From a virus, in the IMG/VR virus record IMGVR_UViG_3300031416_000024, positions 1-42,784 of that record: a DNA stretch of 42,784 nt; one strand, given 5' to 3'. The notes below the pieces were generated by a model. It saw nothing but the letters and a program-made list of their open reading frames with translations, was not told the origin of the DNA and did not search any database. Positions 22,766 to 41,014 of this stretch are shown here, piece by piece. The position numbers were made by a program, and so were the translations under genes. How positions within the stretch are numbered: position 1 is the stretch's first letter; each line of letters opens with the position of its first letter.

Positions 22766-24119
22766 TTTGGTTTCCTGTCTGTGAATTGTTGTTGTCTGTA
22801 AGCTTACTTTGAGAAACGTTAACTGTAAACTTATTCATTGATTCATCTGTGTTGTCACGCGGATAGCCAATACCTACGCGCCCCTCATTCCTGGTGATAA
22901 ATCCTGCCGTGCTCGCACCAGTTAGCAACGCCAGCATTTCAACAGGAGTTCCCTTTAAGGCGGCCTGCATATCAAACTTAACGCAATAACCGTCGATAAT
23001 CTCATCCTGGAAGAAAATCTTTTTGGTCATCTCCTGTTCGATATTAACAATCCAAGGCATAAGCGTATTTTTAATAAACGCAGTAGCCATAGCTGTAATA
23101 TTTGCGTAACTTGTATTTGCCAGATTTCCAACCATATAAGCGGGAACATTAAAGATTCCGCAAATTTCATCTCTTGTCATATTCATAGATAAAACAAGAT
23201 TTGCGTCAATAGGAGAAAGTGAAATTGGCGTGTATGTCACATCTGCTGGCTGGAAGATTACGCGGTTTTTGGAAGTCGCCGCCTCTCTCGCTCCCTTATT
23301 CCAGTTATCAATAAGCTTTCCCCATGCGCTAGGGTCTAATTGTCCTTTTACGCCAACGATGCCGGATGGCTTGCCGCCAGATGAAAAGAAGTTTCCGCCG
23401 TATTCCTGCATATCCATACCCATACGGATAGCGGCGGCGTGTAGCTGAATTGGAGAAAGGCCGCTTCTACCTTTATTTCCAAGCGCACGAAGATGAATCA
23501 TGTCATAAGGCTGGATTACATGAAAACCTCCATCTTCATCAGTGTAATTATATACCCAGCGACGATTACCAAGGTTAACTAAGCTAACAGAGTTTTTATC
23601 ACAATAAACAAGCTCCTTGAATTTGCCAGAGCTTAAATTTCGGATAATCCAGATATAGCCATTTCCGTTAAGGGCATCAACCATAAACTGACGCATTAAA
23701 GTAAATTGCGTTTGCCAGTCGTTTGGGGATTTCTCAGTGACAAATTTTGCAGGATGGGAATCAACCTCGATTTCTTCATCTCCTTTAACCTGCATAATAC
23801 GCAAAGGCATTGTTGCAATTCCGGCGCTGATTCTGTCAATGCAGGAATAAACAACTGACAACTGAAGCGCCTTGTCTCTTGAGATGAATTTCTTTTCCTT
23901 GTCAAAGGAAATAACCTGAGACTGAGAATAACCAAACATAGGATCTTGAATATTCTTGATAGCCCAGCCGCCAAAGTTTTCCGAAGTTCCTACAACGTCA
24001 GAACTCTCTGAGCGCTTCTCTGAATCAACAACTGCCGTATTGCCAATCTGAGGCTCAACATCGGGGCGAGTGGTGGAACCACTTTTACCCCTGAAGAACG
24101 ATAAAAAATTTCTAGCCAT
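22716..24119 (-). CDS. Portal protein (HK97 family)
   Basis: 467 aa, TAATG coupling to the terminase, typical portal size and position. Confidence 0.85.
   Translation of the reverse strand: MARNFLSFFRGKSGSTTRPDVEPQIGNTAVVDSEKRSESSDVVGTSENFGGWAIKNIQDPMFGYSQSQVISFDKEKKFISRDKALQLSVVYSCIDRISAGIATMPLRIMQVKGDEEIEVDSHPAKFVTEKSPNDWQTQFTLMRQFMVDALNGNGYIWIIRNLSSGKFKELVYCDKNSVSLVNLGNRRWVYNYTDEDGGFHVIQPYDMIHLRALGNKGRSGLSPIQLHAAAIRMGMDMQEYGGNFFSSGGKPSGIVGVKGQLDPSAWGKLIDNWNKGAREAATSKNRVIFQPADVTYTPISLSPIDANLVLSMNMTRDEICGIFNVPAYMVGNLANTSYANITAMATAFIKNTLMPWIVNIEQEMTKKIFFQDEIIDGYCVKFDMQAALKGTPVEMLALLTGASTAGFITRNEGRVGIGYPRDNTDESMNKFTVNVSQSKLTDNNNSQTGNQNESGSQTSGNAETTTS
24069..24077 (+). repeat. AGTGGTGGA-core motif copy 9
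   Basis: gggcgAGTGGTGGAacc; antisense to portal (S-T-T-R). Confidence 0.9.
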
Positions 24120-25939
24120 TATAATGATCCCATGTTATCAGGCATTTCAGGAACGGTGTCAGCTATTGTATGACGGATGATACGAGACACGCCAGTGAAA
24201 AGAGCGCTTGGGCCATCAATTTTATATTCCCTGCTGGACTTATCAGGAAAGATATTTCCGTTTCTGTCTCTGTTGGCGTTAACGTTACCCATCATCCAGG
24301 TGAAGGCCTCGTTTTCATCAACATACATTTTATTGCTGTAAACGGTTCCCTCAATATGTTTCATTGCTTCATTGAGGTTACGCACGTTTTGAGGCACTTC
24401 CACCACCTGCCATCCGTGCTTCTGGTTCATAGAAATGGCAAACTGCGTTGCGTGCCAGGGGTCATAAGCCATTTCCTGAAGATTGTCTTCACTCCCTTTT
24501 ACCCATTCAATTAAATCCCCCTTTATTGTTTCAATATCAATTGCATCACCGGAAGTAAGCTTTAGCCATCCGTAAGCGGCCCACCGCTCATAACGCTCTC
24601 GCATCTCATCGGAACAGGTATCAAGCCTTCCCTCTGGTAGCCAGAATTTAGAAAAGAATGCTAGACCGCCTTTATCTGTCCAGTAAGTTTTTACGGCTGC
24701 GCAAATATCTATTTTCTCTGCAAGGTCTACAGAAATAATATAAGGAAGCGTTGCCAGCAAATCGTGCTTTATTGTAGATGATTTTTTTAACTTTCCGTAT
24801 TTCTGCATATCCATCCATGAGAATGCACCATTTACGAAAATGTTTAAATGCTTGGTCTGGAAGTTATTTCTTGAAGATGGCTGTTCGAGCGCCTTCTTAG
24901 CCAGAACTTTCATATCCTGGATTGACTTAGAAACGCCAAGAGCTGGGTTTGCTTTAAACCACAAAGTTGGGTCGCGATAAACTTCATCTGTCTCCATGTC
25001 TTCTTCATCCATTGTGTACCAGATGAAAAAGAATGAATCAGTCTCTTCGCTCTGCTCGATTCTTTTATCAAGAATCTTCATTCCGTAATCTTTAAGCTCA
25101 ATGGCGATGCCATCCAGAATAACGCCAGCAGTTGAAATGACGAAAATTAAAGGCTGGTCGCGCGAGCCTGTTGCAGTTTCCATTACATCATAAACATCGC
25201 GAGTTTTGTGCGCGTGTATTTCATCGATTAATGCACAATGAACGTTTTTGCCGTCAAGAGAGTTAGCATCTGCTGAAACGTGCATAAATCGAGAATATGA
25301 AGATTCGCTAAAAATTGATTTATCTGTAGTCTTTAAATGCTGCTGAAGGTTGAGAGAGGCTTTTACCATTTGCGCGGCATCATCAAAAACAATCCTTGCC
25401 TGTTCTCGCGTTGTTGCTGCGCTGTAAACTTCCGCTCCGCCTTCGCCATCAAATTCTGTCATGTACAAACCAACAGCGGAGGCAATTGCAGATTTTGCGT
25501 TTTTACGTGCCAGGTAAGTTACGGCATGGCTGAATCTTCTTACATACTGAAGATTGCCGGAATCGTCGGTTAAATGCTCTCCTGTTATTTCGTCAAGGTG
25601 AGGCTTAACAAATCCAAAAACGTTAATAAGGATAAATACGTGAAAGTCCATCAAATCGATAGGCTTTCCGCGCCAGCGCTTTCCCTTTACGTGAACACAG
25701 AACTTTGTGACAAAATCAAGAACGTGCTGAGCGCGTGACACGGAGAATATAAAAGGCCGCTCTTCGCTTTCTGCTCTTTCCATATCATCAAGAAATCGCT
25801 CGCAAGCCTTAACCACAACCTTGCACGCAAGAATTTTACCCTCAACAACATCATAGGCATAATCGACACCATCCTGAACAACAGGATTTGAAATGGCGCG
25901 TCCATGCGCCCTGGCGAGCTGAGGCGGGTTAACTGTCAT
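24119..25939 (-). CDS. terL: Terminase large subunit
   Basis: 606 aa. ATPase-type segments (LARKNAKS, CALIDEIH) plus a C-terminal nuclease region. ATGA coupling to the small subunit. Confidence 0.9.
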   Translation of the reverse strand: MTVNPPQLARAHGRAISNPVVQDGVDYAYDVVEGKILACKVVVKACERFLDDMERAESEERPFIFSVSRAQHVLDFVTKFCVHVKGKRWRGKPIDLMDFHVFILINVFGFVKPHLDEITGEHLTDDSGNLQYVRRFSHAVTYLARKNAKSAIASAVGLYMTEFDGEGGAEVYSAATTREQARIVFDDAAQMVKASLNLQQHLKTTDKSIFSESSYSRFMHVSADANSLDGKNVHCALIDEIHAHKTRDVYDVMETATGSRDQPLIFVISTAGVILDGIAIELKDYGMKILDKRIEQSEETDSFFFIWYTMDEEDMETDEVYRDPTLWFKANPALGVSKSIQDMKVLAKKALEQPSSRNNFQTKHLNIFVNGAFSWMDMQKYGKLKKSSTIKHDLLATLPYIISVDLAEKIDICAAVKTYWTDKGGLAFFSKFWLPEGRLDTCSDEMRERYERWAAYGWLKLTSGDAIDIETIKGDLIEWVKGSEDNLQEMAYDPWHATQFAISMNQKHGWQVVEVPQNVRNLNEAMKHIEGTVYSNKMYVDENEAFTWMMGNVNANRDRNGNIFPDKSSREYKIDGPSALFTGVSRIIRHTIADTVPEMPDNMGSL

Positions 25940-26448
25940 ACGTTTGGCCTGTTACCAAATCCATTGCCGATAGGGTCTTGCTCAAGCTGGCCTAGCTGCT
26001 GCGTCTTTGTTCGCGCTGCCGGAGTCCACCCAAACTGTAGCAGGAGCGCCACACATTGCGCGTGGGCCTTTTGCTTCAGTGCTGCGCGTGGATGGGCTAC
26101 TTCCTTGCTTGCGCCAGTTGTAGGCGTAATCTGGATTTGCGTATATCCCTCTCTGTCAAGAACGTCTTTATGCTCGCGCCATTCTGCGTAAGTTTCAACC
26201 AACAGCTCCAGCGACCATGAGTCCATAGTGGAGAGAACGCGGGTCGCCTTAAATTTCTCAGCAAGGTCATGCCAGCACTTTTTTTCAAAGTTGCTGAAAT
26301 AATCAGGAGGCGTCAAATCCTCCATAGGCGGATACTGGACATTCTGGCGCTTTGCGATTTCCTTGCTTCCAAGGTTTGAAGGGTCGCCGTGTAATACGTG
26401 AAGCTCAACAGGTTTGCGGGTTCGGCCCGAAGATGATGTGCCAGCCAT
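25936..26448 (-). CDS. terS: Terminase small subunit (P27-like)
   Basis: 170 aa immediately upstream of terL; W..L...L...G/D-type helical pattern. Confidence 0.65.
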   Translation of the reverse strand: MAGTSSSGRTRKPVELHVLHGDPSNLGSKEIAKRQNVQYPPMEDLTPPDYFSNFEKKCWHDLAEKFKATRVLSTMDSWSLELLVETYAEWREHKDVLDREGYTQIQITPTTGASKEVAHPRAALKQKAHAQCVALLLQFGWTPAARTKTQQLGQLEQDPIGNGFGNRPNV

Positions 26449-31794: not shown

Positions 31795-31825
31795 TTTTTC
31801 TTCCGTTTGTTATCTTGTTGTCAAC

Positions 31826-31854
31826 ACTATGGGCTAAAAAAAACCCGCTGTCAA
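31826..31854 (-). promoter_or_regulatory. Putative sigma70 promoter (TTGACA-17-CATAGT) with a direct repeat of TAGTGTTGACA
   Basis: The 11-nt tgtcaacacta occurs at 31819-31829 and 31849-31859. One copy carries the -35 and the other covers the start region. Confidence 0.55.
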
Positions 31855-31873
31855 CACTAAGCTGAAGCGGGGG
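31836..31873 (-). terminator. Possible terminator after the lysis cassette (6-bp stem, long loop, T8)
   Basis: On the - strand: CCCGCT-16 nt-AGCGGG followed by TTTTTTTT. The loop contains the -35 hexamer. Confidence 0.4.
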
Positions 31874-31874
31874 C

Positions 31875-31883
31875 AGTGGTGGA
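31875..31883 (+). repeat. AGTGGTGGA-core motif copy 12
   Basis: ggggcAGTGGTGGAaag; intergenic. Confidence 0.9.
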
Positions 31884-31941
31884 AAGTTACCAAATCGAAG
31901 CAATGAGGAAGTTAAGTTATCAAGCGTTTTGAGAATATCAG

Positions 31942-34513: not shown

Positions 34514-34749
34514 TATTCCACCACTTGCCCTTTCTCTCTTACTGTTCCGTTCATTTTATCCTGAGCGATCAAATCCAAGACTTTTTGCTTTGCCTCTTTT
34601 TCGTCGGTTCCCCAGGCGCGATAATGCACATCTTTGTATGTTGTCGTTGCGATGAAAATCCAGTATGTGTCCCAATACTCCTGGAAGTTTTTGGGCGCTT
34701 CGCTCCGCTTAACATCAAAGATTAATTCTGGCTCAATTGTCTCCGGCAT
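34513..34749 (-). CDS. Hypothetical protein
   Basis: 78-aa ORF. Confidence 0.5.
   Translation of the reverse strand: MPETIEPELIFDVKRSEAPKNFQEYWDTYWIFIATTTYKDVHYRAWGTDEKEAKQKVLDLIAQDKMNGTVREKGQVVE
34517..34525 (-). repeat. AGTGGTGGA-core motif copy 14
   Basis: The - strand reads GGGCAAGTGGTGGAATAATGGAAAAA at a stop/start junction. Confidence 0.9.
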
Positions 34750-35371
34750 TTTCTAAAACCCCGCAAGGCGTGATTGATAAAACCTGAACAGGCTTACGAT
34801 AGTCTGCAACAGGGCGCTTTACATCAAGATTGTAGAGGAATCGCATGAAGTTATCAGGAATATCGCCTGGTTGAATCAGATTAGGAATAGTCCTTAAAAC
34901 CTCAGGCTTAGGCTCAAACTCTCCGCTACCTGTGAATCCCTCAGTCTGGCCGCCAACGTAATTACAAAAAAGCTCCGTAACTTCCTTGGCGCTCATAGCC
35001 ATAGAGTACTCAAAAACCTGTAGAGCGCCGTTCCCGTACTCCATTCCAGCTACGGATCGGAAAACAACCATCATACGATTATTTGCACAAGGATAGCTTG
35101 CAGTCGCTTCGCATGTGATTGTCTCACGGTGCGGAGCGTAAAATTCACCGCGCTTGCTTTTGCGTTTAACATCTTCAAGACCAGATGAGAAAGTTAACGC
35201 TTCTGGTTTTTTTGACTCCAGCGAATCAATGATGGAAGCCCCAGCAGAATTCACTAAACGTTCAAGCGCGGTTTTGTAGATGTGTCCGGTTGCCGAAGAA
35301 ATGACAAAACGAACAACCTCAACATCAAGCCCGTTATCTTCTGAAAACTTATCGATATCGAATTCAACCAT
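34733..35371 (-). CDS. Hypothetical protein
   Basis: 212-aa ORF with a GAGGA RBS. First gene after the promoter at 35404-35432. Confidence 0.6.
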   Translation of the reverse strand: MVEFDIDKFSEDNGLDVEVVRFVISSATGHIYKTALERLVNSAGASIIDSLESKKPEALTFSSGLEDVKRKSKRGEFYAPHRETITCEATASYPCANNRMMVVFRSVAGMEYGNGALQVFEYSMAMSAKEVTELFCNYVGGQTEGFTGSGEFEPKPEVLRTIPNLIQPGDIPDNFMRFLYNLDVKRPVADYRKPVQVLSITPCGVLENAGDN

Positions 35372-35403
35372 TTTTCTAAATCCTCATTTTTAGTAACAGG
35401 CTA

Positions 35404-35432
35404 AGAATGGGCCAAATCTTACCGATTGTCAA
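35404..35432 (-). promoter_or_regulatory. Putative sigma70 promoter (TTGACA-17-CATTCT)
   Basis: The reverse complement reads ACGTTGACA-N17-CATTCT, about 30 nt upstream of the ATG at 35371. Confidence 0.55.
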
Positions 35433-35438
35433 CGTTTT

Positions 35439-36032
35439 ACCCCTCTCCCCCTCTCCCCCTGTATTTGAATTATTTGAGTTTTTTCGTAAGTTAATGATTT
35501 TTATGATTTTTCATTTACTATTTGAAAGTCGCCTACATCTCTATAACTCAATACATACATACAGAGAGGGAGGGTATATAAATACACCCCTCCCCCTCTC
35601 CCTACGTAAGAGGCTAGACAGAGGTTATAAATATAAATAAATAAATATATAAATATATAATAGTATAGTTATCAGGGGGTTAGAGGGGGTATTTGAATGC
35701 AGACACCCTCCTTTTATTGCAATTAAAATCAATGTGTATGATTTATATAGGGAAATTATTTCAGCACAAAAAACCTGAAAAGCGGAATTTTGCAAAAACT
35801 GAGCAAATCAGGCGGCAAGTGGTGGAATTACCTATCAATTAATCGGGCAACACTACAATAAAACCTATCGTAAACCTCAACACTCTCTCCTGTGGTTTAC
35901 AGCACCGACAGGGAGAGAGAGGGAGGGGTGTTTATATTTTTTATTAGCTAGGATGGGAGAGAGAGGGGGTGTGTTTAGTCGGTTCTTGCCAAATACATCA
36001 GGAGAGAGGGGTGTAATTTATACACCCTCTCT
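35439..36032. repeat. Iteron field: ~10 copies of a GGAGAGAGGGGTGT-like polypurine unit in both orientations around a 48-bp ~96% A+T tract
   Basis: G-rich copies on the + strand at 35564, 35675/35685, 35911, 35955 and 36001. C-rich (inverted) copies at 35439-35460, 35584-35603, 35703-35711, 35881-35890 and 36022-36032. AT tract at 35625-35672. No convincing ORF. Confidence 0.8.
35818..35826 (+). repeat. AGTGGTGGA-core motif copy 15
   Basis: cggcaAGTGGTGGAatt; inside the non-coding iteron region. Confidence 0.9.
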
Positions 36033-36059
36033 ATGCGCGAAGTTATAAGGACAGGTAAT

Positions 36060-36082
36060 AAAAAACCCGCACTAGGCGGGTT
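36060..36082 (-). terminator. Rho-independent terminator; 23-nt cassette identical to 5557-5579
   Basis: On the - strand: AACCCGC-CTAGT-GCGGGTT followed by TTTTTTATT. Confidence 0.8.
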
Positions 36083-36103
36083 ATCTTATAATAGCTGGGC
36101 TTC

Positions 36104-36413: not shown

Positions 36414-36542
36414 TTCTTACTTTTCCTTTTTGCAGTTTTTGCAATTTTCTACAATATAATAAACTGGTTTTTCTGATTTTACCAGACCATGCCGCATGAT
36501 TGTATCAATGCAGCCAGAAACTGGAGATATTTTTTTATCCAT
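36414..36542 (-). CDS. 42-aa CxxC peptide (not in the ORF track)
   Basis: Hand translation: MDKKISPVSGCIDTIMRHGLVKSEKPVYYIVENCKNCKKEK. TGATG overlap with the lipoprotein stop. Fills the gap exactly. Confidence 0.35.
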
Positions 36543-36883
36543 CAGTAAGCTTTCCTGCAATTGAATATTTCAAGGGTATTTCCGCTTTCATTGCCTGTCA
36601 TGGAAAAGGAATTAAACCCTCTGACGTAATCAACGCCGTTCATTGTTGCCCTGCCTCCAGAAAGAACGGGTGACTGCCTGGCGCTACTGCTGCCGCTAAT
36701 CGTGTAAACAAAGTATGACTGCTCAGGATAGTCCTGAACAACAGCGCCATCTTTCATCACAGCCTCTGTGTGACCGCCTTTCTTGTGGCTGACATCGCAA
36801 ATCTGAGTGCGATTAAGCAGGTCGCTACCCATAGAGGAGCATCCAGAAATAACAATGGCACTCATAAGAATTAAGCTTTTCAT
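36542..36883 (-). CDS. Lipoprotein (candidate superinfection-exclusion factor)
   Basis: Signal peptide MKSLILMSAIVISGC with lipobox VISGC; 113 aa; early region. Confidence 0.65.
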   Translation of the reverse strand: MKSLILMSAIVISGCSSMGSDLLNRTQICDVSHKKGGHTEAVMKDGAVVQDYPEQSYFVYTISGSSSARQSPVLSGGRATMNGVDYVRGFNSFSMTGNESGNTLEIFNCRKAY

Positions 36884-37368: not shown

Positions 37369-37398
37369 AAGATAGCACTAAAACTTACAACTTGTCAA
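37369..37398 (-). promoter_or_regulatory. Putative sigma70 promoter (GTGTTGACA-18-TATCTT) embedded in the 3' end of the methyltransferase-like CDS
   Basis: The reverse complement reads AGTGTTGACA-N18-TATCTT upstream of the ATG at 37341. Confidence 0.5.
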
Positions 37399-38089
37399 CA
37401 CTGTATTTTTCAAAAACCGCCCTTGAGAATCCTCTGGGCGTTGCACTTCTGATGTTTTTTGTTTTAAGGGAGTCACCGCCTAGCTGGCTGTATTGTTTGC
37501 TTTTTCCAGCCTCATCATCTGGCACGGTCACAGGTCGTTTCTCTGGCAGCTCAAAACCCCCGCCGCACCAAAGGCCAGTTTTTTTCGTGTAGGCGTCACT
37601 GTCGTTTATCCATTCGCTGTAAAGTGGATGCTTCTCCTTTCCTTCAAGATAGCCTCCGTATTCGAAAGGGTGAAAATATTGCGGCTTCCCGAATAGCTCA
37701 TGGTTTGCAAAAATGCTCACGGGATTTTCAAAAAACCACGGACAACCGCAAATAAGACCTATCATTCTGCACTGCTCGGCAACCATAACAGATTTGGCCC
37801 AAACTAGAGCATCGTTTTTAATTTTGCTTTCAAAGTGCCTTGTGCCGGAAACGGCAACATCAGTACAGGGCGGAAACCCTGCAACAAAAACAATTTCAAA
37901 CTTATCCATGAATTGCCGGATAAGGCCTGAACACTCAACTATCGTTCCGGCCAGCTTAATATACCCTTTTTCTTTTCTGGTTTTACCATGCTGAGGGTCT
38001 ACAAGTATCGCCTCAAATCCAGCATCAACCCAATCAGCGCAAAACAACCCTGTGTAATCACACAGGGATAAGATGGCCTTCTTTTTCAC
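37385..38089 (-). CDS. Small DNA (cytosine-5)-methyltransferase-like protein without an obvious target-recognition domain
   Basis: Motif I-like SLCDYTG, motif IV-like GFPPCTDVAVSG (catalytic PC) and motif VI-like FFENPV. Only 234 aa. Confidence 0.5.
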   Translation of the reverse strand: MKKKAILSLCDYTGLFCADWVDAGFEAILVDPQHGKTRKEKGYIKLAGTIVECSGLIRQFMDKFEIVFVAGFPPCTDVAVSGTRHFESKIKNDALVWAKSVMVAEQCRMIGLICGCPWFFENPVSIFANHELFGKPQYFHPFEYGGYLEGKEKHPLYSEWINDSDAYTKKTGLWCGGGFELPEKRPVTVPDDEAGKSKQYSQLGGDSLKTKNIRSATPRGFSRAVFEKYSVDKL

Positions 38090-40731
38090 TTTTCCACCGC
38101 CTTCTTAATGAATGATTCTCCAGCCGTAGTATCACAGAAATCGGCCCACGTCTGATAGGTGAAGTAAACCATAGTTCCTCTTCCGCGCTGGCCTGGTTTT
38201 GATCGGTATTCAAACTCCTTGATTTTCTGCTCGCTCTTAAGTGTCTGTATAATCAATCTGCGATTTTTAACATCCCCTCCAAGTCGGGTATTCTCAGAAA
38301 TAGCCTGTAACGTAGCGCCTTTAGGCTGTGAGGATATGAAATCATTAACTTCCCTCATTACGCTCTGTTCTTTGGAGTCGGTAATATGGTTTCTTGCCAT
38401 TTCTTCGGATTTCTCGGCGCACCAGCTAACAAACTGGTAAGCGTATAAAAGGCTGTCTTGTTTGATTGATGTAGAATATGGCCTTTCGGCAAGCTCGAAA
38501 ACCATAGCCGTTCTTAAAGTGTTTTCTGTCAGTCGCCCCCATATGCCCGCGTATTTTCCGGCCTCTCTCTTCCTTGCTGTTTCCACTGACTTTATGTAGA
38601 TTTCAAGTTCTTTGGAATCTGCATCTATCGTCATTGCGGTTACATTTTCCTGGCCTTGGACGTACATTTGCGGCGTGTAAATTGATTTAACTCTGTTAAT
38701 CCAGACTCCGACACTTTCAGGTAAAGTGGTATTCATGGGAATCTTACCTTCCCTGTTTCCGCTTCCTATGGAGTTAAGAACCTGGAATCTTGAAAGAAGC
38801 CCGTCTATGATATCGCTTCCGCTGAACGCTTCATAAATCTTTCCTGGGGTAGTCAGCCCATAAATGCTGGGGCAGATTCCGCCAAGGTCCACAACTGCGT
38901 TATTTTTGGCGTCAGCCTTGCTTGCAGTAACGTTGGTTTTTTCTCCATATGAAGTATAGCCATCAAGGATTGCGCGGCGAATCATTTTCTGTGAGACGTT
39001 GGCTCTTTCATGGAAGATATTGGCAAAGAGTTCGCCTATCTCATCCAACATAAAATATCTTCCCTTGTCTTTCACAAGGTCGTTGTAGAATCCCTTATCT
39101 GATACGATATCTTTTGGCCCGATACGGTTGTGATCATAAGCGCACTCTAGCACTTTTTTCGCCATTTTAACTGTCTGACTTTTACCGACAGATGTATCGG
39201 CTATAACCATAAAGTAAAGATTCGTCGTTAGTGTTCCGTAAGAAAATCTTCCGGCAAGGAGAGCGCCAAGAACAGAAAGCGTAAAAGACGCTGCAATCTC
39301 AGGAACGTAAGTAGAGCTGTTTTGCGCCTGCCAACGGAATAGGTCGCAAAGCACTTGCCTGTTTCCCAATCTTTCGAACCAGGATTTAAACTCAGACTCA
39401 TCTGGCATTCCGGCGTTTGGGTCTTTATTTCTGCCCTTTTCAAAAAGTGACTGAAGCATTTTCATCGATTTGGAATTGCTTGAATTCATAATTGACACGG
39501 CCTCTATTCTTGATTCGTCAACGTAGTTGATGTTATTAGTTTTTTTGGCGTGAAGCATTTCTTGCTCTATGATTTCTGGGAGGCAAGAGAAATCAATAAT
39601 CATCACTTCCGGCATTGCTTCAAAATCAACGTGCATAGGTAGAGGAACTTCGTTTTGCACAAAAAGGCAGTTTTTTGATTCATCAACAAAATCAGCAACC
39701 TTTGTTGGCTGCATTTTTACATGGTCTGAAGGGTCAACATAAACCCCTTGCTTTCCTGTGTTTTCAAAACCAAACTCCATTGCAAGCTCAAAAAAGCTCG
39801 CTATCGTCCTTCCGCCAGACCTGTATTTAAAAGATCGCCAGCGTCTTTCACATAACTTGTAGCTAAACTTCCCGCCTAAATGCTGGCGGAGCCAATCAAA
39901 ATAAAGTTGTTTTCCCATGCCGCCAGGTAAAAGTGACTGCAACCCCATTCCGACTTTTAAGCGCTCGTCGTCATTCAGGGAATGGAAATTAAGATAATCC
40001 AAAGCTTCTTTAATCTGGTCTAAGTCATCACTATCAACATCGCGAGCGGTTACGGTAAATCTTTCTGGGGAAAATCGCTTATCGTCAAATCCATCACGAA
40101 TCAGATTTTCAATGGATCGGGGCAGTGGTGGAAAATCCTTCGACAAAAGCAACTCTTCACTTTCTTCCGTCCATTGGTACTTGTTGCCGCTTTTATGGTT
40201 TGACGGGGATAAAAGGATGTAGCCGTTAAATTTAAAATCAACACCAGGGTAGTTTGACCCAAGTCCAGAGGGAGCGGATTTAAAATCACCAGGAGCTTTG
40301 AAAATTAAATGAACGCCTCCGCCTCCGGTTTCTGCGGAAATAGTAGATGTTATTTTTTCCTTGAATGTAGTCTCAAAATCATCAAGGGCCTCAAAGCCGT
40401 TTACTTCAACTCCTTTTACAACGTGGCGATCAATATCAATGACGAAAAGACCGTTTCCTGAACAGTCTAATGCAATATTTGCTTTTGGATATTGCGTCCA
40501 CCAGTAATCTACTTTCTTTAAATCTGAGGTCGAATCAAGACGGCCTTTCGGCACTATCCATTTCCCCTCACTTCCAGCTATAGGGTGTTTCCCAGGGTTA
40601 TTTTGTGAGCCAGGGCCTCCGCAATTTTTATCATTGCAGGCGCACTTTCCTGTATTCTCATCAATCCACCACAAAGGGAAAATTTTGAGTCCAGCCCCTG
40701 CGTACTTCAGAGCCTTCTCTTTATTTTCCAT
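38086..40731 (-). CDS. Bifunctional primase-polymerase fused to a P-loop (DUF3987/D5-like) helicase domain
   Basis: N-terminus ALKYAGAGLKIFPLWW...GKHP with DIDRH acidic motif (prim-pol). Walker A DTSVGKSQ and Walker B MLDEIGE in the C-terminal half. Confidence 0.8.
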   Translation of the reverse strand: MENKEKALKYAGAGLKIFPLWWIDENTGKCACNDKNCGGPGSQNNPGKHPIAGSEGKWIVPKGRLDSTSDLKKVDYWWTQYPKANIALDCSGNGLFVIDIDRHVVKGVEVNGFEALDDFETTFKEKITSTISAETGGGGVHLIFKAPGDFKSAPSGLGSNYPGVDFKFNGYILLSPSNHKSGNKYQWTEESEELLLSKDFPPLPRSIENLIRDGFDDKRFSPERFTVTARDVDSDDLDQIKEALDYLNFHSLNDDERLKVGMGLQSLLPGGMGKQLYFDWLRQHLGGKFSYKLCERRWRSFKYRSGGRTIASFFELAMEFGFENTGKQGVYVDPSDHVKMQPTKVADFVDESKNCLFVQNEVPLPMHVDFEAMPEVMIIDFSCLPEIIEQEMLHAKKTNNINYVDESRIEAVSIMNSSNSKSMKMLQSLFEKGRNKDPNAGMPDESEFKSWFERLGNRQVLCDLFRWQAQNSSTYVPEIAASFTLSVLGALLAGRFSYGTLTTNLYFMVIADTSVGKSQTVKMAKKVLECAYDHNRIGPKDIVSDKGFYNDLVKDKGRYFMLDEIGELFANIFHERANVSQKMIRRAILDGYTSYGEKTNVTASKADAKNNAVVDLGGICPSIYGLTTPGKIYEAFSGSDIIDGLLSRFQVLNSIGSGNREGKIPMNTTLPESVGVWINRVKSIYTPQMYVQGQENVTAMTIDADSKELEIYIKSVETARKREAGKYAGIWGRLTENTLRTAMVFELAERPYSTSIKQDSLLYAYQFVSWCAEKSEEMARNHITDSKEQSVMREVNDFISSQPKGATLQAISENTRLGGDVKNRRLIIQTLKSEQKIKEFEYRSKPGQRGRGTMVYFTYQTWADFCDTTAGESFIKKAVEK
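40124..40132 (+). repeat. AGTGGTGGA-core motif copy 16
   Basis: ggggcAGTGGTGGAaaa; antisense to the primase (F-P-P-L frame). Confidence 0.9.
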
Positions 40732-40735
40732 ATGC

Positions 40736-40954
40736 CTAAATTCCTAATGAAATTTTTATATTATGCTTTTTTGCAACAGCTTCGATTGCTTTGATGTGCG
40801 CTTCTTTTTTAGGCAGCAGCTTTTTTGATTTGTACCAGTTAAGGATAGCTGAGTGAGTGATTTTTACCCCTTCGCTTTCCATCTCCAAGGCAAGCTTTGC
40901 TACCCCGCCGATACTGTGAATAAGGTTGTCCAGGCTCGATGTAATCACTTGCAA
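40736..40954 (-). CDS. Cro/YdaS-like HTH regulator
   Basis: VAKLALEMESEGVKITHSAILNWYK looks like an HTH. First gene of the leftward arm. The start is TTG 40954 or GTG 40948, after AGGAAA. Confidence 0.5.
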   Translation of the reverse strand: MQVITSSLDNLIHSIGGVAKLALEMESEGVKITHSAILNWYKSKKLLPKKEAHIKAIEAVAKKHNIKISLGI

Positions 40955-40962
40955 TTTCCTGT

Positions 40963-40979
40963 TGACACAATGTTAGAAT
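40963..40979 (+). promoter_or_regulatory. Putative rightward promoter with extended -10 (TGtTAGAAT)
   Basis: TGTTAGAAT at 40971-40979. A TTGACA at 40963-40968 is too close to be its -35. Confidence 0.45.
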
Positions 40980-40985
40980 GAGTCC

Positions 40986-41014
40986 ACTATACACAACACC
41001 AAAGCACTTAACAA
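40986..41014 (-). promoter_or_regulatory. Putative leftward promoter (TTGTTA-17-TATAGT)
   Basis: The reverse complement reads TTGTTA-N17-TATAGT. Its -10 is interdigitated with the rightward -10. Confidence 0.5.

Follow-up and report, generated by a model that had tools for sequence, protein, structure and literature searches.

We propose that the only long non-coding stretch in the phage genome IMGVR_UViG_3300031416_000024 is a replication origin of the kind served by a self-loading helicase, overlapping the control region of the next operon. Judging from sequence features, we put the probability of this reading at about 0.5. The 42,784-bp stretch that we analysed, hereafter the window, represents a circularly assembled metagenomic phage contig (ENA ERZ27247383, 42,798 bp), and the gap in question occupies positions 35372-36103 (732 bp) between two operons. 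The proposal is supported by ten G-rich repeat units that are restricted to the gap and lie around the segment of lowest duplex stability in the window, and by the position of the gap directly after the terminator of the replication operon. It is further supported by an order of elements that is kept in 12 lineages while the neighbouring proteins diverge, by a consensus site for IHF that holds its distance and orientation relative to an A+T tract in seven lineages while its N positions are free, and by the combination of Prim-Pol, PriCT_2, SF3 helicase and a confidently modelled winged helix in one phage protein. A preliminary description of this DNA had suggested an origin or another nucleoprotein assembly site. 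That suggestion is still the best explanation and is strengthened by the layout, the A+T tract, the IHF-type site and the candidate initiator, while two of its details, the triplex-prone homopurine character and the helical phasing of the repeats, proved not to be conserved.

Genes from about 5.6 to 40.7 kb are carried on the minus strand. The early replication operon runs from 40948 down to 36104 and encodes a Cro-like protein of 70 residues, the 881-residue PrimPol-helicase, a methyltransferase-like protein of 234 residues and then four small proteins of 141, 113, 41 and 102 residues. It is closed by an intrinsic terminator, a hairpin with a T-run found by terminator scan at 36064-36082 (minus strand). 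The next operon starts at 35371 with the gene for a 212-residue protein, followed by small proteins, a nuclease homologue and the lysis genes, past which lie the packaging and structural genes. Its predicted promoter, a sigma-70-like TTGACA-17-CATTCT read from the sequence, is located at 35404-35432 (minus strand); the site scores under the threshold of the promoter scan, and its assignment rests on conservation. TTGAC, followed 17 nt downstream by a CAnnnT hexamer, is common to the window, the L004 group, L011, L012 and L013 (alignment A1), L147 has TTGACT-17-TATGCT, and L146 has TTGACA without such a hexamer. The earlier claim that a terminator and a promoter bound the region is borne out, as is the claim that no other long non-coding stretch exists in the window, which holds against the gene calls of the source contig. 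The 626-bp field first delimited (35433-36058) is indeed non-coding, but the true extent is the wider 732-bp gap. Spurious open reading frames of 49-77 residues that cross the gap are not conserved, so coding is unsupported.

The central feature of the gap is an A+T tract at 35625-35672, which we propose as the DNA-unwinding element on the basis of its composition, duplex stability and conservation. As first described, its 48 bp lack C and contain only two G (27 A, 19 T, 2 G; 46/48 A+T), and no other 48-mer of the window is as rich in A+T. Duplexes of 40 and 60 bp also have their lowest stability in the window here (-33.3 kcal/mol against a mean of -53.5 and a standard deviation of 4.1, about five standard deviations off). 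The tract is nearly invariant across nine aligned loci and recognisable in all cultured relatives; its end, TTTATAAC, recurs in seven metagenomic lineages and in Serratia phage Bigdog, and Serratia phage Rovert has the version TTTATTTATATATATTTATTTATTTATTTATATT. Abutting the tract at 35670-35682 (plus strand) is an IHF-type site, TATCAGGGGGTTA, identified by its match to the consensus WATCARNNNNTTR. A perfect match to this consensus occurs in the same orientation, 15-20 bp from the tract, in 7/7 metagenomic lineages, with GGGG, GGAG, GGTG, CTAC or GCAC at the N positions, while the pattern has a frequency of 0.16 per kb across the window. No perfect match was present in the five cultured relatives.

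Around the tract we counted ten G-rich units, five with the G-rich strand on the plus strand and five on the minus strand, in agreement with the roughly ten polypurine units in both orientations reported earlier. One pair of inverted units, GGGGGTTAGAGGGGGTATTTGAAT ... ACACCCTCC, stands on one side of the tract at 35675-35711, and a palindromic pair, AGAGAGGGAGGGTATAT..ATACACCCCTCCCCCTCTCCCT, on the other at 35563-35603; both arms of the latter change together in L012 and L013. Three direct copies span 35910-36014, with starts where they had been placed before (GGGAGAGAGAGGGAGGGGTGT at 35911, GGGAGAGAGAGGGGGTGT at 35955 and GGAGAGAGGGGTGT at 36001). The second, GGGAGAGAGAGGGGGTGT at 35955-35972 (plus strand), lies 41 and 42 bp from its neighbours, and the third, AGGGAGAGAGAGGGAGGGGTGT, is at 35910-35931 (plus strand). 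Sequence inspection also shows a palindromic unit pair, AGGAGAGAGGGGTGTA / TACACCCTCTCTA, at 36000-36033, which confirms the imperfect palindrome noted at 36003-36032. A short unit reading CAGGAGAGAGTGT on the minus strand (35879-35892) is inverted relative to that at 35910-35931. Finally, the promoter-proximal unit, GGGGGAGAGGGGGAGAGGGG on the minus strand, is found at 35440-35470 together with the second copy of GTATTTGAAT.

The feature is non-random, and these units are concentrated in the gap. GGGGTGT starts at 35925, 35966 and 36008 and its complement ACACCCC at 35584, with no other copies in the window. Looser matches to GAGAGGGGKKT number 38 in the window, 17 of them inside this 1.5% of its length, compared with a shuffle mean of 19.6 per whole window. 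GGGG/CCCC is over-represented 7-fold in the gap (P = 3e-9), as are G-runs, by 2.5- to 12-fold, in the gaps of 11/11 lineages tested, and the short core GTGTA is enriched in those of most lineages. The sequence GTATTTGAAT does recur at 35461 and 35689, as had been noted, and these are its sole occurrences in the window. We also observed that both copies (35461-35470 and 35689-35698; TCAAATAC on the other strand) adjoin G-runs and that the gaps of L146 and L147 keep one copy of TCAAATAC beside a G-run. This sequence may belong to the repeat unit or form a site of its own.

The comparison with relatives drew on eleven related genomes, namely six metagenomic lineages and phages of Klebsiella, Serratia and Dickeya. 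Searching with the 212-residue protein yielded five clusters in public assemblies, and searching with the helicase added two more metagenomic lineages, L146 and L147. Homologues of the helicase are present in 24 GenBank phage records at 37-52% identity, all from hosts that are Serratia, Klebsiella sp. M5a1 or Dickeya. In all genomes examined, a non-coding gap measuring 0.45-0.73 kb occupies the equivalent position, directly after the terminator of the replication operon, where a hairpin with a T-run is found in all relatives; its stems are unrelated in L146, L147 and KLB5. The order of elements common to the 12 lineages is terminator, repeats, A+T tract, inverted repeats, promoter-proximal repeat and gene. 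Across the same lineages, identity to the window falls to 38% for the primase and to 25-43% for the small flanking proteins. Mean column identity in the gap is 78% for the nine aligned loci, compared with 31-43% for the flanking proteins in L012 and L013.

The repeats themselves turn over within this layout. The type GAGAGGGGTGT is found in the window, L004, L011, L146 and L147, the type GGGTATAGGGGTTGCA in L012 and L013, and the type GGGGGAGGGGGT(G)TA in Rovert, Bigdog, KLB5 and KLB29; Sucellus has repeats of the TGTATATA type, almost without G-runs. In most relatives the A+T tract has repeats on either side, and in L146 and Klebsiella phage KLB5 the pairs are located mostly toward the promoter. 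Lineages also differ in the number, spacing and arm order of the repeats: the central palindrome runs from G-arm to C-arm in the window and from C-arm to G-arm in L146 and L147. A fixed layout with replaceable repeats and a flipped arm order is a better fit to protein-binding sites than to one fixed hairpin. Nor does turnover of the repeats within a preserved layout fit a single folded RNA or DNA hairpin or a requirement for homopurine sequence.

Two rival explanations turn on DNA or RNA structure. In the first, the G-rich units would form an unusual DNA or RNA structure (triplex H-DNA, a G-quadruplex or a stable R-loop) and would not be protein sites at all. Several units are short homopurine mirror repeats (GGGAGAGAGAGGG, GGGGGAGGGGG), and the enrichment of G-runs in all 11 lineages tested would suit this idea. 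However, homopurine sequence is lost in L012 and L013 (GGGTATAGGGG) and Sucellus is almost without repeated G-runs (TGTATATA), yet the layout is kept, and most units have only two or three G-runs, divided between the strands. The homopurine mirror repeats behind the triplex suggestion of the preliminary description are present in the window, but L012, L013 and Sucellus carry mixed-sequence units, and we consider a role through structure only to be very unlikely. In the second, the product of the gap would be structured RNA, either as a long 5' leader or as one or more non-coding transcripts. Both strands do fold far better than shuffled sequence (z of -6.0 and -4.2), as is expected of inverted G/C-rich repeats. 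Rfam returned no family at its gathering score and only chance-level matches at E up to 5, the covariation term of RNAalifold was unfavourable (+2.2 kcal/mol), and no conserved internal pair of promoter and terminator was found in the gap. The only well-kept helices are the terminator hairpin, whose pairs never vary, and the central palindrome, whose arms are repeat units and stand in reversed order in L146 and L147. A structured RNA is unsupported by Rfam, folding and RNAalifold alike, and we rate it as highly improbable.

A candidate initiator is encoded by the operon that ends at the gap. The preliminary description had named no initiator, a statement now superseded by the finding that the 881-residue protein (38086-40731, minus strand) contains PrimPol, PriCT_2 and DUF3987 (SF3 helicase) domains followed by a C-terminal winged helix, as judged from Pfam, PHROG, AlphaFold2 and Foldseek. 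The AlphaFold2 model of residues 690-881 has a predicted local distance difference test score (pLDDT) of 90 and shows a helical bundle and then a winged helix (H-H-H-strand-wing-strand). Its top Foldseek matches are winged helices of Orc1/Cdc6 (bound to origin DNA), ORC, ScpB and MarR/PadR, with weak E values of 0.03-1, and the 881-residue protein has no sequence similarity to any solved structure. We regard it as a candidate initiator on the basis of this model. The putative recognition helix of the window is found unchanged in L012 and nearly so in L146 and L147, and the cultured clades have a different one.

The elements described above can be combined in a model of how the origin would fire. 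The 881-residue PrimPol/SF3-helicase, made from the operon that ends at 36064-36082, would bind the G-rich ...GGGTGTA units through its C-terminal winged helix. Units facing in opposite directions on either side of the tract (35675-35711 and 35563-35603) would let two helicase rings assemble face to face, host IHF bound at 35670-35682 would bend the DNA at the edge of the tract, and the 48-bp tract, being the least stable DNA of the window, would melt. The PrimPol domain would then prime on the exposed strands, possibly with the 212-residue OB-fold protein from the adjacent gene as their coat. Accessory roles would fall to the three direct units at 35910-36014 and to the unit at 35440-35460 that abuts the promoter; through the latter, transcription of the next operon would depend on whether the repeats are occupied.

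That last element also belongs to the main rival explanation, in which the gap is a transcriptional control region only. According to this alternative, a phage regulator bound to the G-rich units and a bend introduced by IHF would turn the promoter at 35404-35432 on or off once the early replication genes have been expressed, with the A+T tract as a bendable or UP-like element. The gap does sit between a terminator and the sole promoter-like site for the next operon, and IHF sites are common in regulated promoters. An equivalent of the promoter-proximal unit adjoins or sits inside the promoter-like site in L004, L011, L012, L146, L147, KLB5 and Rovert, is degenerate in L013 and lies just upstream of the first gene in Bigdog. 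In the window, L004, L011 and L147, some 5-7 bp separate the end of the G-rich unit from TTGAC downstream of it, and in KLB5 and Rovert the unit itself fills the space between TTGACT and TACCAT or TATAGT. Since the last repeat is next to the promoter or within it in nearly all lineages, the gap likely has a role in transcriptional control as well. However, some 600 bp and ten sites reaching 600 bp from the promoter far exceed what a promoter needs, and the strongest conservation is at the A+T tract, 230 bp upstream of the promoter, rather than at the promoter itself. The unit does not keep a constant position relative to TTGAC from lineage to lineage, which speaks against a fixed activator geometry; the other promoter regions of the window are free of G-rich units, and no regulator was identified for such a switch. 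We therefore think it rather doubtful, though the possibility is a real one, that transcriptional control is the sole role of the gap.

Some further promoter-like features were seen. The divergent early promoter region at 40949-41000 contains GTTGACA-N6-TAGAAT, and the promoter at the end of the gap has the same arrangement, GTTGACA-N5-TAAGAT; L146 also carries GTTGACA-N6-TAGAAT. From its sequence, this arrangement could be a shared operator or a set of overlapping promoters. A look-alike of a sigma-54 promoter near the gene start (TGGCCC-N5-TAGC) was rejected because it is not conserved in L004 or L011. We also dismissed the resemblance of TATAGGGA to a T7-like promoter, since no phage RNA polymerase gene is present.

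Another possibility is that the gap is a packaging site or genome end (cos, pac or a terminal repeat), at which terminase and IHF would act on the repeats. In lambda, cosB combines repeats in both orientations with an IHF site, a likeness that counts in favour of this explanation, and phages of the clade have a gene for an HNH endonuclease, like HK97-type cos phages. Several short, independent metagenomic contigs also start within the gap (L002, L003, L007 and L010, at 277, 147, 573 and 83 bp upstream of the gene for the 212-residue protein). However, starts at such differing points fit breaks in assembly at repeats and not one fixed end; breakage of this sort is probably their origin, and long contigs run through the gap. 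The terminase genes (24119-26448) are about 9 kb away with some 20 genes between, and the gap is upstream of them. With this distance and such scattered breakpoints, the packaging option put forward in the preliminary description is unsupported, and we hold it to be very improbable. Packaging, RNA and structure-only roles are each unlikely.

Several of our results weigh against an origin, or at least against its simplest form. There is no shift in GC skew at the gap, in a genome whose skew tracks gene orientation, and neither DnaA boxes nor GATC clusters were found in the gap. The 41- and 42-bp spacing of GGGGTGT, read earlier as helical phasing, is correct for the window but is not conserved: direct copies are spaced 40 and 47 bp apart in L004 and 45 bp apart in L011, and the array is absent from L012 and L013. 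Unit length is variable (9-21 bp), unlike that of the 5-6-bp iterons of Staphylococcus aureus pathogenicity islands (SaPIs) or the fixed-length iterons of plasmids. As for the protein that would read them, the winged helix is invariant between the window and L012/L013 despite their different units, and no neighbouring protein was found to track the unit type, as one would that differed in L012 and L013 but was alike in the window, L146 and L147. Five genes and 2.0 kb separate the helicase gene from the gap downstream of it, and the two are not directly adjacent; this distance is 0.6-2.3 kb in the relatives. Finally, the promoter-proximal unit and the need for a promoter are compatible with a purely transcriptional role too.

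Direct searches beyond these relatives added little. IMG/VR returned no matches or chance matches to the conserved blocks of the gap and nothing useful for the flanking proteins. A 16-base block gave 120 chance matches in the genome collection and one chance match in the JGI metagenomes, and the plasmid search gave only a 50-bp match over the terminator end. Searches of GenBank phages with the gap DNA or the 212-residue protein, and a word-index search with the C-terminus of the helicase alone, likewise yielded nothing useful.

Apart from the G-rich units, the alignment of nine loci revealed five invariant blocks: the terminator, TTCCACCACTTGCC..CTGATTTG, ATTTCCCTATAnAnATCA, the A+T tract ending in TTTATAAC, and GAGATGTAGGCGACTTTCAAAT. 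Mapped on the window, the invariant block CAAATCAG..GGCAAGTGGTGGAA is at 35804-35829 and the invariant block ATTTGAAAGTCGCCTACATCTCTA at 35520-35543, and TGATTTATATAGGGAAAT at 35739-35756 is invariant bar two positions. The first of these contains one copy of a 14-mer, GGCAAGTGGTGGAA, with the core AGTGGTGGA, confirming the motif copy noted at 35818. The exact core occurs 17 times in the window, compared with about five loose matches in shuffled sequence; sites include 657, 7719, 12730, 14910, 18008, 19862(-), 27976, 31875, 34517(-), 35818 and 40124. Copies occur in both orientations and within genes in different frames, they are over-represented in intergenic DNA, and three are directly before start codons. 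The 14-mer is also frequent in KLB5, Rovert, Bigdog and KLB29. It is found inside the gaps of KLB5, Rovert, Bigdog, L146 and L147, and KLB29 has it beside the gap, before its terminator and before the ribosome-binding site. Its sequence resembles Chi (GCTGGTGG). In a second small gap, at 31795-31941 after the lysis genes, a copy of the motif TTCCACCACT overlaps the stem of a terminator-like hairpin (CCCGCT...AGCGGGTTTTTTTT).

One could imagine from this distribution a new type of origin, in which the signals for loading or priming of the PrimPol/SF3-helicase are not classical iterons but G-run elements together with the genome-wide 14-mer TTCCACCACTTGCC, the 14-mer also marking sites of priming or recombination throughout the genome. 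If true, origin firing and genome-wide priming would fall under one recognition code. We mention this as a speculative and quite unlikely extension.

The proteins encoded on either side of the gap were modelled or searched as well. AlphaFold2 gave the 212-residue protein (34733-35371, minus strand), the product of the first gene past the gap, a structure of helices and a beta-rich C-terminal domain at a pLDDT of 66.6. The best Foldseek matches to this weakly OB-fold/SSB-like model are nearly all OB folds of SSB proteins (E 0.05-0.5), and the match to the Pfam phi29 SSB family is weak (E 0.15). Based on the model, the protein may be a phage SSB. We had also considered it as a RepA/RepE-like initiator and rejected this because AlphaFold2 and Foldseek gave weak OB/SSB matches and no pair of winged helices. 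For the families of the 102- and 141-residue proteins, profile searches against PDB sequences were empty and no family was detected. The family of the 113-residue protein (36542-36883, minus strand) has a lipoprotein-like start, MKKLIL..LSGC, which is odd inside a replication operon; from this sequence, it may be a surface or exclusion protein. The 234-residue protein (37385-38089, minus strand) matches PHROG 757, annotated as DNA methyltransferase (E 2e-61), and no Pfam family. The target of this methyltransferase-like protein is possibly one of the repeated motifs.

If the gap is an origin, it would be the cis element so far missing from a little-studied clade of virulent siphophages, found on Serratia, Klebsiella and Dickeya and among uncultured relatives, that replicates with a fused PrimPol/SF3-helicase. 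It would then offer a tractable bacterial model of how self-loading enzymes choose and open their DNA, and it would help both phage engineering and the annotation of similar gaps in metagenomic phages. The reading overturns no current idea, and the presence of the layout in cultured relatives makes it directly testable.

Among known systems, ori-lambda and the origins of pSC101, R6K and P1 consist of repeated initiator sites with an adjacent A+T-rich unwinding region, an IHF site in several of them, and repeats that overlap a promoter. The gap differs from the lambda and iteron-plasmid origins in that no O-like or Rep-like initiator and no DnaA boxes are found, unit length is variable and spacing is not conserved. 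In phage P4, the alpha protein, a primase/SF3-helicase with a C-terminal DNA-binding domain, reportedly binds repeated sites in both orientations at ori and crr, and a primase/SF3-helicase protein together with repeats in both orientations is what the window and P4 would have in common. The P4 repeats are said to be short octamers (TGTTCACC), with the second cis site, crr, kilobases away and a primase of a fold family other than Prim-Pol.

What we found here includes both a helicase with a winged helix, as in initiators of the self-loading SF3 type, and an A+T centre flanked by opposing repeats. The gap is not immediately downstream of the gene for the candidate initiator, though it directly follows the terminator of the same operon. 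In the SaPIs, the C-terminal winged helix of Rep/PriRep reads iterons located just past rep, where they flank an A+T-rich centre and face opposite ways on its two sides (PMC9371898). These iterons are 5-6 bp long, number 6-12 and start immediately after the rep open reading frame, and in SaPI5 the helicase is fused to a primase (PMC9371898). The likeness to our window extends to the helicase with its C-terminal winged helix, the A+T centre with opposing repeats and the location downstream of the replication genes. By contrast, the units here are 9-21 bp long, G-rich and distributed over some 600 bp, and they are separated from the helicase gene by 2 kb and five genes. An IHF-type site accompanies them, and one unit abuts the promoter of the next operon.

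A close counterpart of the protein itself is ORF904 of pRN1, in which Prim-Pol, a helical domain, an SF3 helicase and a winged helix follow one another. The pRN1 origin, situated past the terminator that closes the replication operon, has inverted repeats and consists of a single stem-loop of about 100 nt that must be intact (PMC4234260). Proteins like ORF904 occur in the Bordetella phages BPP-1 and BIP-1; the authors noted such phage proteins, with PriCT_2 standing in for the helical domain, and similar elements in phages (PMC4234260). The gap differs from that element in having many repeats around an A+T tract and a hairpin geometry that is not conserved. It shares with pRN1 the same domain order, with PriCT_2 in place of the helical domain, the position after the terminator and the inverted repeats.

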